Shown here: piece by piece, positions 43,011 to 64,000 of the stretch | Layout: each line of letters starts with the position of its first letter | Position numbering within the stretch: position 1 is the stretch's first letter | Assembly: GCA_963714275.1 (NCBI GenBank) | Contig: CAVQNT010000006.1 | Location: 224,001-288,000 of the forward strand | DNA: 64,000 bases | Direction: 5' to 3' | Origin: Candidatus Bathyarchaeota archaeon | GTDB lineage: Archaea > Thermoproteota > Bathyarchaeia > Bathyarchaeales > DTEX01 | Translations under genes and position numbers: made by a program | Notes under the pieces: generated by a model | Databases searched by the model: none | Seen by the model: the letters and a program-made list of their open reading frames with translations, nothing else | What the model was told of the DNA's origin: nothing

Positions 43011-44375
43011 TTAGAACCCAGCTTCAATGAGATCAGCTGATTTCATGAACTCTTTGAGAACAACAGTCGCATAGGAACCTTTATGCAACATGAATCGGAA
43101 TTTTATGGTTTGACTGTTTTGGTCAACTTTGTTTTCATCAACACTGAAGCTAAAGTCCAGAATCGATGACAAGGCATTTCTTAAACCGCCTTCAGCGCTT
43201 GCTTCAGGCATTTCTTTTAGGCGGAAATTTTCAGCTTTGGCTCCTTCTTCCTCTAGAATGTTTGTTTCGATCTGTCCTTGAGCTCCGCCTGAAATATCCT
43301 GGTTGTACCCTATTAAGGGCAAGGCAACAGCCATTTCCTTTTTACTGATTGCTTCGTTGATTGCTGAAGCTTCGTCAGGTCCTGTTTTCCTGATACTGTT
43401 CGTAGGCGACCCTTTTTCGTCTAAACTTACCACGTAATCTCCTGGATAGGCTTCAGTAAGTGATATTCCATGTTTCATTCTCTCGCTGAGGAACCTGTTA
43501 AAAAGGAAGGACTGGTAAGCCTGCACGAAAAAGGCACGTAAGTTGCGAGGGATTCTACGGAAAGCTCCCAAGAAGTCGTTTGAATACCTTGAAAGATGCA
43601 TCATCATCAGCCTTTCGTAAACAAGCCTTCTGGGAAAGAATCGCAGACAGTCCCTGTAATCTCTGGTTTCTCTCAGCCGTTCACGAGCTCTGGCAGAACG
43701 GCGATGTTCATGGACGCTTGGCTCTGAAAGAAAAATTAAAGCCGCCTCCTCAAACTCGCCTTTCACGATGCAACGCCCAACTCTATGAGTGAAAGGTCTA
43801 ATTGTGCCAAATCTTTGATGCCCAAAAAAGTTCGGAACACCACCAAGAACCTTAAGCATATTCCACGTCTCTTCAATCCTTTGCCTAACAATGTCAGCAG
43901 AATAATTAACTGACCTCATGGTTATGTCGAATCGGTTCCCGAAAAGAACCTTCGAGGAAATTTTGTCAGACGAGAAACGTGTCGGAATAACACTCGCATC
44001 TTCTAAGTGAACCTTTAAAATCCTCTCAATTGAGACACCACCTAGGCTTATGTGTTGAGCTGTCAGAGCTCGAGCGTCCTTTATTCCAGCAATGCTGATT
44101 CGTTCAGGATCAACGCCTACTTTCTTTGCTATCGCCCTGACAGCTGCGAATGTGTCCCACCCCTTCTTTATCAGAACACACACGACGTATCGTCCATGAC
44201 CCGAACTCAACGCCTTCATGTCTGATGGATTAACAGAAGCTTTTGAACCGTCAACAAGCATTTCTTCGACTACGAAATCTTCGGGGAAAGTCCGAATTTT
44301 GCCACCTACTCCAAGACTTTGTGAAGCGTATACCTCGATTCCGAAGACGGCCTCAAGTTCAGGAACTTTTTCCAT
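43011..44375 (-). CDS. truD: tRNA pseudouridine(13) synthase
   Basis: PEDFVVEE, AGIKDARALTAQ, GNRFDI, PNFFGHQRFG, KGSYATVVLKE. Confidence 0.95.
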   Translation of the reverse strand: MEKVPELEAVFGIEVYASQSLGVGGKIRTFPEDFVVEEMLVDGSKASVNPSDMKALSSGHGRYVVCVLIKKGWDTFAAVRAIAKKVGVDPERISIAGIKDARALTAQHISLGGVSIERILKVHLEDASVIPTRFSSDKISSKVLFGNRFDITMRSVNYSADIVRQRIEETWNMLKVLGGVPNFFGHQRFGTIRPFTHRVGRCIVKGEFEEAALIFLSEPSVHEHRRSARARERLRETRDYRDCLRFFPRRLVYERLMMMHLSRYSNDFLGAFRRIPRNLRAFFVQAYQSFLFNRFLSERMKHGISLTEAYPGDYVVSLDEKGSPTNSIRKTGPDEASAINEAISKKEMAVALPLIGYNQDISGGAQGQIETNILEEEGAKAENFRLKEMPEASAEGGLRNALSSILDFSFSVDENKVDQNSQTIKFRFMLHKGSYATVVLKEFMKSADLIEAGF

Positions 44376-62188: not shown

Positions 62189-62262
62189 TGGACTGGGGGG
62201 GATTTGAACCCCCGGCCTCCGCCGTGCGAGGGCGGCATTCATCCAGGCTGAACTACCAGCCC
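62189..62262 (-). tRNA. tRNA-Ala(CGC), CCA not encoded
   Basis: Reverse complement GGGCTGG...CCGCC CT CGC AC GGCGG...GGTTCAAATCC...CCAGTCC-A, with the G3:U70 alanine identity pair. Confidence 0.95.
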
Positions 62263-62370: not shown

Positions 62371-63210
62371 TTGCGAATGAAACAAGTATCTCCATTAATC
62401 TTTGCGATAACAATTTTTTTAGTAGCCACCTCGATAATAGCAATGAATCGCATAATAATTAAAAACCAAACCGTGATGAAAACCCTCAGATACGGCGGAG
62501 AAAACCGTTCATACTGGATTTTCGTCCCCTCGGGCTACAACGGTTCAGATCCTGTTCCGCTGGTGGTGATGCTTCACGGTGCAGGAGGAAACGGCAGGGG
62601 AGCTGACGAAATGAGTGGCTGGTCGACCATAGCGGAATCCGAGGGCTTCATTACCGTGTTTCCTGACGGCGGCGTGTGGAATATCTACGATTGGAATGGC
62701 ACAGGCAGAGATGACGACGGGTTCTTGTTGGCTATCATCAACAAGGTTCAAGAAGACTACGTGATTGATACTAGCCGAATCTACATGACGGGGCACTCGA
62801 TGGGAGCAGGCATGACCATCACATTTGCATTAGAGCACGCCGACATTTTGGCAGCCATCGCACCAGCCTCTGGACCGTGGCTAATCAGCAACCGTTCGTT
62901 CAACATTGACCCACGCTCGGTTCCACAACTCAACGTCCCCATCCCAGTGTACATCTGGCGAGGAGGAAACGAGGAATGGCCGTCGGCAAATGAGAATAGG
63001 CTTCAGATTCAGTATTGGGTAAAATTAGATAAAGATAACGAGATTCCCCAAGTCATCAGAGAAGGTTTGTACATAACCGAAATCTACGCAGGCGGAGACG
63101 CGAAGGTCATGTATACAGAAATAAAGGATGGCAACCACGACTCCTACAGGCATGGGACGACCCAAAAAATATGGTACGAATTCTTCAAAAACCTTAGAAG
63201 AAACCCATAA
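62371..63210 (+). CDS. PHB-depolymerase/LpqC-like secreted or membrane-anchored esterase
   Basis: N-terminal TM, PLVVMLHGAGG, GFITVFPDG, RIYMTGHSMGAGM (GxSxG), C-terminal GNH...IWYEFF. Confidence 0.85.
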   Translation: MRMKQVSPLIFAITIFLVATSIIAMNRIIIKNQTVMKTLRYGGENRSYWIFVPSGYNGSDPVPLVVMLHGAGGNGRGADEMSGWSTIAESEGFITVFPDGGVWNIYDWNGTGRDDDGFLLAIINKVQEDYVIDTSRIYMTGHSMGAGMTITFALEHADILAAIAPASGPWLISNRSFNIDPRSVPQLNVPIPVYIWRGGNEEWPSANENRLQIQYWVKLDKDNEIPQVIREGLYITEIYAGGDAKVMYTEIKDGNHDSYRHGTTQKIWYEFFKNLRRNP

Positions 63211-63308
63211 CCGTAAAAAAACCTGCACAAACCTAAAAATAACTTGGAGAACAATCTTAGCAAATAACGAAAAACATATATTCAGTCTGTCATTTTTGAA
63301 AGGATTGT

Positions 63309-63491
63309 CGGGCGGTAGCTCAGCTTGGCAGAGCTTCCGGCTGTAGGCGTCTACCGTGCGGTGGATGCTGCTCAGCTGCCGAGCGTACAGAAACCGGACC
63401 GTCGCAGGAGAACCGAAGCAAGCCTTCGGTTCGGTGAATTCAAAATAGGATGGCTGAAAAGCTGCCTATGAAAGTCCCGCCCGCCCGACCA
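63309..63491 (+). tRNA. tRNA-Tyr(GTA) with three introns (63347-63392, 63409-63438, 63445-63474), CCA encoded
   Basis: Acceptor CGGGCGG/CCGCCCG-A-CCA (C1:G72, A73), D-arm GCTC/GAGC, anticodon stem TCCGG/CCGGA with CT-GTA-G; the T-arm GCAGG-TTCAAAT-CCCGC is restored after removing two hairpin introns. Confidence 0.88.
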
Positions 63492-63497
63492 CTAAAA

Positions 63498-64000
63498 TTA
63501 TAGCGTATTTGCTGGTTCAACGGTTTCTTGCAGTTTCACGCCCTGCAATCTGCCTATGGCTTTTACTAGTGACGGTACAAACAGTGCGAAGATTATGGTG
63601 TTTGTGAACGTGTGGATGATGGGAGGATAAGGCATATAGATGGTAGGAATGAAGGTCAACAAGATTGCCTCCCAAACGGAACTATAATACACGGAGTAAG
63701 CCAAGTAAAAGCCCACACTTCCAAGCACATCATAGGTGAAAGTCAACAGGAACCCCAAAAAAGCCAATTCCACAATCATCCTTCGGCTCATTTTTTGGGT
63801 GCTATACCTTTTTCCAAGGATTCCGCCTACTATACCGTAGAGTGCACCAAGCCCAATCATTACTGCGAGAAGTATCGGAGTAGTAACAAAAAGAAAGGCT
63901 GCAGGACTAGTGAGTGGATAAGGAATCAACATTATAATTGCTACGGAAATGGCGCCATCCAAGGCTCCGACCACCAATCCGAACATAAGCCCGCTAACAA
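63498..64000 (-). CDS. Membrane protein, probable ECF transporter S component; 5' end off-window
   Basis: G-LFGLVVG pattern, multiple TM segments, LTFTYD...HTFTNTIIFAL. Confidence 0.6.
   Translation of the reverse strand, partial: VSGLMFGLVVGALDGAISVAIIMLIPYPLTSPAAFLFVTTPILLAVMIGLGALYGIVGGILGKRYSTQKMSRRMIVELAFLGFLLTFTYDVLGSVGFYLAYSVYYSSVWEAILLTFIPTIYMPYPPIIHTFTNTIIFALFVPSLVKAIGRLQGVKLQETVEPANTL

Follow-up and report, generated by a model that had tools for sequence, protein, structure and literature searches.

Positions 63309-63491 of the window, the window being the whole 64,000-nucleotide stretch of DNA analysed here (Candidatus Bathyarchaeota archaeon, GCA_963714275.1, contig CAVQNT010000006.1), very probably constitute a functional, single-copy tRNA-Tyr(GUA) gene on the forward strand, with three protein-spliced introns, a four-intron ancestor, and a first intron that can hold the precursor in an alternative fold. 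In the proposed course of maturation, a BRE/TATA-like promoter would give rise to a precursor of about 183 nt containing all three introns. An EndA of the heterotetramer type, with a catalytic alpha subunit carrying the crenarchaea-specific loop (CSL) and a second subunit lacking the catalytic His, would then cut relaxed BHB motifs at 37/38, 53/54 and 59/60, and RtcB would join the four exons, including a 6-nt piece of the T-loop. The gene would descend from a four-intron state by precise loss of a 30/31 intron, and a conserved box in intron 1 could keep the precursor in an alternative fold with no D-stem, no anticodon stem and no 37/38 splice motif. Since this fold is without that splice motif, a conformational switch is probably needed for splicing at 37/38.

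Reading of window positions 63100-64000 gave a tRNA-Tyr(GUA) gene that is interrupted by introns at positions 37/38, 53/54 and 59/60 and includes a micro-exon of 6 nt. The features of the locus are as follows.

63269..63282, forward strand: promoter-like box, a purine-rich BRE-like run plus a TATA-like ATATAT, 27-40 nt 5' of tRNA position 1.
63309..63346, forward strand: exon 1, tRNA positions 1-37 (acceptor 5' strand, D-arm, anticodon stem 5' strand, GTA, G37).
63323..63331, forward strand: D-loop/D-stem nucleotides (gene positions 15-23) that pair with the intron 1 box, as judged from pair counts and covariation.
63340..63343, forward strand: G31 C32 U33 G34, possible partner of the box's CAGC in the alternative fold and, offset by one, of ACAG near the 3' end of intron 1 in the splicing fold.
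63347..63392, forward strand: intron 1 (37/38), 46 nt, with hairpin 63347-63368, box 63373-63384 and ACAG 63387-63390.
63373..63384, forward strand: conserved box of intron 1, CAGCUGCCGAGC, first the complement of G31-G34 and then that of the D-loop.
63393..63408, forward strand: exon 2, positions 38-53 (anticodon stem 3' strand, variable loop, T-stem 5' strand).
63409..63438, forward strand: intron 2 (53/54), 30 nt, with a 9-bp hairpin, GG|A and AA|T bulges and central helix CGCA/GGTG.
63439..63444, forward strand: exon 3, the 6-nt micro-exon TTCAAA, T-loop positions 54-59.
63445..63474, forward strand: intron 3 (59/60), 30 nt, with central helix TTCA/TGAA, AA|A and AG|T bulges and outer helix TAGG/CCTA.
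63475..63491, forward strand: exon 4, positions 60-76 (T-stem 3' strand, acceptor 3' strand, A73, encoded CCA).

A three-intron tRNA-Tyr with these boundaries and a 6-nt exon had been proposed in the initial annotation, and it was borne out by re-reading, by the joined exons and by the gaps between orthologues. When the four exons were joined in silico by their coordinates, ARAGORN called a 77-nt tRNA-Tyr(gta) with C1-G72, A73 and CCA. The C1-G72 pair and the A73 discriminator are identity elements of archaeal-type tRNA-Tyr; the pair was found in 52/52 orthologues, and A73 together with CCA in 29/29. Exon 1 was invariant or nearly so in the alignment of 52 orthologues, and the micro-exon TTCAAA aligned collinearly with the unbroken T-loop of orthologues without both T-arm introns. 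The T-stem of the window's gene has one A.C mismatch, A51 opposite C63 (window 63477). The same A51/C63 combination occurs in all seven genomes of the window's genus and at loci L017, L079 and L083, and elsewhere among the orthologues U63 is found, or G63 paired with U51 or C51.

The promoter-like box lies at an equal distance from the gene in most of 30 orthologous loci; it was not seen in L023, L025, L027 and L030, and the sequence of L018 ends early. From its position and composition the box may be regarded as a putative BRE/TATA promoter. Upstream of tRNA-Tyr and on the opposite strand lies a tRNA-Ala(CGC) gene, about 1 kb away in the window (62189-62262) and about 100 nt away in a relative of another family (L030:1323-1400).

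When 61 related genomes were searched, the gene could be read in 53 of them (52 complete, one broken by a contig end), and the other 8, which gave weak matches only, were left out of the orthologue counts. Alignments of 29 and of 52 orthologues have their gaps precisely at the 53/54 and 59/60 boundaries. With exact boundaries, the 53/54 intron was absent in 24/52 genes, the 59/60 intron in 21/52 and the 30/31 intron in 10/52, and genes without the T-arm introns have an unbroken T arm that is collinear with exons 2, 3 and 4 of the window. The exact gaps and the collinearity of the T arm thus identify each insertion as an independent, precisely bounded unit. The 37/38 intron was present in 114/114 genes of a wider sample of the phylum, and since no orthologue (0/114) is without it, this boundary was placed solely by the BHB rule and the resulting 7-nt anticodon loop.

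Six intron combinations were seen in all among the 52 genes. All four introns (30/31, 37/38, 53/54 and 59/60) are present in 21/52, 30/31 with 37/38 in 14/52, the window's own set (37/38, 53/54 and 59/60) in 5/52, 37/38 only in 5/52, 30/31 with 37/38 and 59/60 in 5/52, and 30/31 with 37/38 and 53/54 in 2/52. The initial view that triple-intron tRNAs are rare and known mainly from Thermoproteales therefore fails for this lineage, where three or four introns occur in 33/52 orthologues. Such a series, one orthologous gene with six combinations of four introns in 52 relatives, offers a clear setting in which to follow how archaeal tRNA introns are gained and precisely lost.

Within the window's genus the 30/31 intron is absent in three genomes, the window's included, and present in four. 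As the intron is found in 42/52 genes, its precise loss in the window's lineage would be the parsimonious reading, and the window's gene has probably lost it. In the four-intron orthologues (21/52; loci L004-L009, L011-L014, L017-L022, L024, L026, L028, L029 and L062) the 30/31 intron is 27-43 nt long, and its splice motif pairs intron GGAG with exon C25-C28, a pairing that cannot coexist with the cloverleaf's D-stem and anticodon stem. At one further locus, L074 (G040:C33:775-1145), there is a second, partial tRNA-Tyr 5' part that includes the start of the 30/31 intron and has no matching 3' end; this partial copy may represent a remnant or have arisen by duplication at an integration site.

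A search pattern that runs from intron 2 through the micro-exon into the first part of intron 3 matched 27 records in a named genome collection. The titles of 25 of these refer to Bathyarchaeia or Bathyarchaeota (B26-1 and B26-2 included), and all 25 have a tRNA-Tyr 5' part. The other two, with Chloroflexi in their titles and no tRNA 5' part, were rejected as chance matches.

The intron structures were supported by the pattern of substitutions. Over 2026 cells of the orthologue alignment the named helices were paired in 95.8%, and 23/49 pairs had changed on both sides; slid controls were paired in 38-46% of cells, and no shuffle reached the observed values. Compensatory changes were located mostly in the four intron hairpins, and the central helices pair with invariant exon bases, where variation is possible on one side only. 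All helices and bulges that had been read from the letters of the window at the outset (CTGT/ACAG, the 9-bp hairpin of intron 2, TTCA/TGAA and TAGG/CCTA) were present.

In intron 1, the hairpin showed changes on both sides in 8/9 pairs, an AA|A bulge holds the 3' splice site, and the central helix CTGT/ACAG is canonical. The 5' splice site is located at a three-way junction and not in a clean 3-nt bulge, giving a BHL-like, relaxed motif. A canonical outer helix between the first intron nucleotide and position 78 was considered and rejected, since position 78, inspected by eye, varies without matching; the first intron nucleotide covaries with its hairpin partner instead (AU 24, GC 19). The hairpin of intron 2 had changed on both sides in 5/6 tested pairs. 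Its central helix was paired in 85.7% of cells across orthologues. In the window this helix consists of three pairs and one A.G mismatch, and the fourth pair is not formed in 16/28 orthologues. In intron 3, the outer helix had changed on both sides in 4/4 pairs with 99.2% of cells paired, and the central helix was 91.1% paired. The predicted splice motifs would accordingly comprise one strict core, that of intron 3, and two relaxed ones, those of introns 1 and 2.

The initial annotation had also called for an EndA of relaxed specificity, and the host genome encodes a candidate. Two EndA paralogues, encoded at L031:1471-2028 on the reverse strand and at L032:1216-1785 on the forward strand, score above the Pfam cut-off, each with an N-terminal and a C-terminal EndA domain. 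EndA alpha is closest to chain B of A. pernix EndA (E 2.6e-42, 175 residues aligned) and has Lys and Lys at the positions of CSL residues K44 and R46. In the A. pernix enzyme, the CSL confers broad substrate specificity, and relaxed motifs lacking a helix are cut (PMC3241643). The second subunit has no His at the position aligned to the catalytic site of M. jannaschii EndA and, with the catalytic His missing, fits a non-catalytic partner. Judged by its sequence, the host enzyme is a two-subunit, broad-specificity EndA of the crenarchaeal type. RtcB is likewise present in the host genome (592 bits).

An obligatory order of splicing, in which intron 2 (53/54) leaves before intron 3 (59/60) and the T-stem then supplies the outer helix of intron 3, had been suggested from the start and is possible, though we consider it the less likely case. 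The geometric part of the suggestion stood: intron 2 parts G52 G53 from T54, so the outer helix that G52 G53 form with C61 C62 is interrupted in the primary transcript and made continuous only by removal of intron 2. The tRNAscan-SE 2.0 paper (PMC8450103) moreover states that closely spaced introns can require sequential removal. The three bulge-helix cores use different nucleotides and could all form in the primary transcript, and the EndA alpha of the host appears to have the CSL that has been linked to cleavage of relaxed motifs without a helix. Folding of splicing intermediates favoured neither view: the central helix of intron 3 was predicted to be less, not more, probable once intron 2 was gone, its probability falling from 0.39 in the full precursor to 0.02. 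In addition, each T-arm intron occurs without the other in relatives (59/60 in 5/52 genes, 53/54 in 2/52), and neither therefore depends on the sequence of the other. An order of removal would thus follow from geometry, and in general form the idea has been published with tRNAscan-SE 2.0 (PMC8450103).

The 37/38 intron contains a box of 12-13 nt that pairs with the D-loop and with G31-G34, and that covaries across 114 genomes of the phylum. In 52 genes of the order, 467/468 cells of the box/D-loop helix were paired, compared with 15-44% in slid controls. This order-level set includes about 30 G.U cells and not a single A.C cell at the box/D-loop positions, which indicates selection on RNA pairing. 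The wider set comprised 114 genes, 54 from the order, 30 from other orders of Bathyarchaeia and 30 from other classes of the phylum; 23/151 genomes of the phylum gave no BLAST match and are outside it. Here, 96.7% of 1004 cells were paired and two pairs covary, pair 17 with CG 64, UA 44, UG 2 and GC 1, and pair 21 with UA 59, CG 20, AU 13 and UG 13. A.C and other mismatches occur in this set at the two outer box/D-loop pairs. Directly 5' of the complement of the D-loop, the sequence CAGC can pair with G31 C32 U33 G34, and this pairing is kept in 103-113/114 genes. The box is absent in 4/114 genes and present in weaker versions in some, in a sample that is biased towards box-bearing genes because it was retrieved with queries containing the intron. 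In loci L153 and L160, from other classes of the phylum, the tRNA-Tyr introns are without the box and have GATGAG-like and other motifs that might be box C/D-like.

Shuffling of the D-arm/intron complementarity gene by gene gave a helix of 9 bp against a shuffled mean of about 6, which is weak when taken alone, and in genes with 8-9 bp the observed value was reached by 0-46/300 shuffles. The case for the box/D-loop helix accordingly rests on its constant position and on covariation. A local hairpin was rejected as the reason for conservation of the box, with 70.8% of cells paired and 73/500 shuffles reaching this value. We found no description of intron/D-loop pairing in pre-tRNA-Tyr in the openly accessible papers searched, and the Sulfolobales Psi35 paper never mentions the D-loop or the D-arm.

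The consequences of this pairing for the precursor were explored with nearest-neighbour models at 37 C, in folds with no pseudoknots or proteins. In nested folds, the two predicted helices of the box, one with the D-loop and one with G31-G34, leave no room for the D-stem, the anticodon stem or the 37/38 splice motif. The alternative fold is the predicted MFE structure of the window's precursor once introns 2 and 3 have been removed, and it would dominate in 24/41 single-intron orthologues. In genes with the 30/31 intron, the modelled box/D-loop helix has a probability of 0.9 or more in 18/21 and the anticodon stem one of 0.01 or less in 21/21. The models further suggest that the hairpin and central helix of the 30/31 intron can form inside the alternative fold, and that U35 and A36 are unpaired in it.

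A tentative reading of these results, to which we would give rather less than even chances, is that the canonical tRNA-Tyr intron of Bathyarchaeia and other classes of the phylum acts as a conserved cis-acting conformational switch that times maturation. If this were so, the box would keep the precursor open, in a non-cloverleaf form without the 37/38 motif and with U35-A36 unpaired, and the 30/31 motif, which needs the D-stem and the anticodon stem melted, could form in the open fold. The other introns and intron-dependent modifications would then come first and the canonical intron last. Candidates for early modification would be Psi35 by a Pus7/TruD homologue, or the action of T-loop enzymes freed from the D-loop contact, and the box may also have made the gene permissive to gaining extra introns. 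A homologue of the TruD/Pus7 family of pseudouridine synthases (408 bits) is encoded at window positions of about 43047-44345 on the reverse strand (G000:C6:267047-268345); it is a candidate for tRNA-Tyr Psi35, a link that is speculative. What tRNA introns do has long been asked, and the box provides a concrete and testable hypothesis.

Two other explanations of the box appear unlikely. According to the first, the box works in trans once the intron has been cut out; a stable circular intron might, for instance, bind D-loops or guide a modification. The D-loop target sequence is common to many tRNAs, as reflected in weak matches to exon 1, and released yeast introns have been described to pair with mRNAs. 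Guide introns are also known in archaea, as in the box C/D intron of pre-tRNA-Trp, and in introns of that type the C (RUGAUGA) and D (CUGA) boxes flank the guide. We consider the explanation improbable all the same: the box covaries with the D-loop of its own gene (pairs 17 and 21), and the neighbouring CAGC has its partner on the anticodon-loop side of that very molecule. Inspection of the alignments by eye showed no conserved C or D box in the intron columns, no C/D family match in Rfam overlapped the gene at E up to 10, and a role of intron 1 as a box C/D guide was rejected on these grounds.

According to the second, the box is conserved solely as part of the structure recognized by EndA, a BHL-type motif, and its complementarity to the D-loop has no role of its own. 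The box is indeed only 2 nt from ACAG, the strand of the central helix, and a thaumarchaeal pre-tRNA-Tyr intron is a BHL substrate in the A. pernix EndA paper (PMC3241643). This too seems a poor prospect, given that the covariation follows the D-loop and no partner within the intron, and that the local hairpin is no better paired than shuffles.

The warning that standard scanners may miss the gene proved correct for both programs used. ARAGORN left the tRNA-Tyr locus uncalled and called only tRNA-Asp and tRNA-Ala in the window, and Rfam found the same two tRNAs at gathering score, with no match at the tRNA-Tyr locus even at E up to 10. In single-intron orthologues, ARAGORN called tRNA-Tyr with an intron at 37/38 in 8/8 cases. 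The search for a second tRNA-Tyr gene was bounded by a host genome of 2.64 Mb in 10 contigs that is 91% complete. Over this whole genome, ARAGORN with introns allowed reported 38 tRNA genes, none of them Tyr, and none of the 42 matches to RF00005 that Infernal returned at E up to 10 was located at a Tyr gene. BLAST of the locus against its own genome returned the locus itself and weak matches to other tRNAs only, and four stem-loops that resemble a Tyr anticodon arm were not in a tRNA context in any case. The gene in the window is thus the sole tRNA-Tyr found in the 91%-complete genome, and its description corrects the annotation, as without it the genome seems to have no tRNA-Tyr. That the locus is a decayed tRNA pseudogene, or that its insertions are not introns, would fit the missing scanner calls and the A.C mismatch in the T-stem but is extremely improbable, considering that no second Tyr gene was found in the genome, that the exons are nearly invariant over 52 genomes and the introns vary with compensatory changes, that the promoter box is conserved, and that each of the insertions at 53/54, 59/60 and 30/31 is precisely present or absent in orthologues.

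The extra weak Infernal matches in the genome are other interrupted tRNAs, for example Leu and His, and at least six other tRNA genes of the same genome are similarly interrupted. Those that probably have non-canonical or multiple introns lie at G000 C6:33986-34101, C2:557700-557762, C2:207817-207899, C3:236832-236919, C6:381659-381714 and C2:664693-664792; the anticodons that ARAGORN assigns to these six loci are unreliable.

Multiple-intron tRNA genes, with at least two introns of which at least one is at a non-canonical position, have been described before, and the window's gene with its three introns, like the 21/52 orthologues with four, belongs among them. No paper on the tRNA introns of Bathyarchaeia was found in a search of the openly accessible literature. 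The multi-intron tRNA genes of Thermoproteales (Pyrobaculum, Thermofilum; PMC8450103; Chan et al. 2011, PMC3218864) are alike in having several EndA-type introns at canonical and non-canonical positions, a heterotetrameric EndA and closely spaced introns, and in being hidden from simple scanners. On the other hand, the present host belongs to Bathyarchaeia, its relatives have four introns in tRNA-Tyr, whereas the tRNAscan-SE 2.0 paper states up to three per archaeal tRNA gene (PMC8450103), and the 6-nt exon lies inside the T-loop. The interrupted tRNA genes of Asgard archaea, for which as many as five introns within a single gene were reported in a 2026 preprint, many of them unannotated (bioRxiv 10.64898/2026.10.13.758758), resemble the present case in the many introns per gene and in how many were missed by annotation. 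They come from a different phylum, and the available text of the preprint has 0 occurrences of either Bathyarchaeia or Tyr.

Both 59/60 and 30/31 are known break points (PMC3218864). The permuted tRNA-Tyr of Thermofilum pendens shares the 59/60 break and also has a canonical intron, and the split tRNA-Lys shares the 30/31 break at which the relatives of the window's gene have their fourth intron (PMC3218864). Unlike in permuted and split tRNAs, the pieces are here collinear in one gene and separated by introns. The (alpha-beta)2 EndA of A. pernix (PDB 3P1Z/3AJV; PMC3241643) is similar in its CSL-type alpha subunit and in a second paralogue that serves as non-catalytic partner, but for the second subunit of the host the M. 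kandleri and M. jannaschii EndA entries are nearer matches than the A. pernix beta chain.

In eukaryotes, the intron of tRNA-Tyr is required for modification (Psi35 and m1A58; PMC12168002), and its role there goes beyond removal and extends to an effect on the distant T-loop; the archaeal intron, deeply conserved as well, may be similar in this respect. In contrast to the archaeal box, recognition of the eukaryotic intron by protein is proposed there, and the available text describes no D-loop pairing (PMC12168002); a link between the role of the eukaryotic intron and the archaeal box is tentative. The layout of the gene itself is already known in kind and is common in this lineage.
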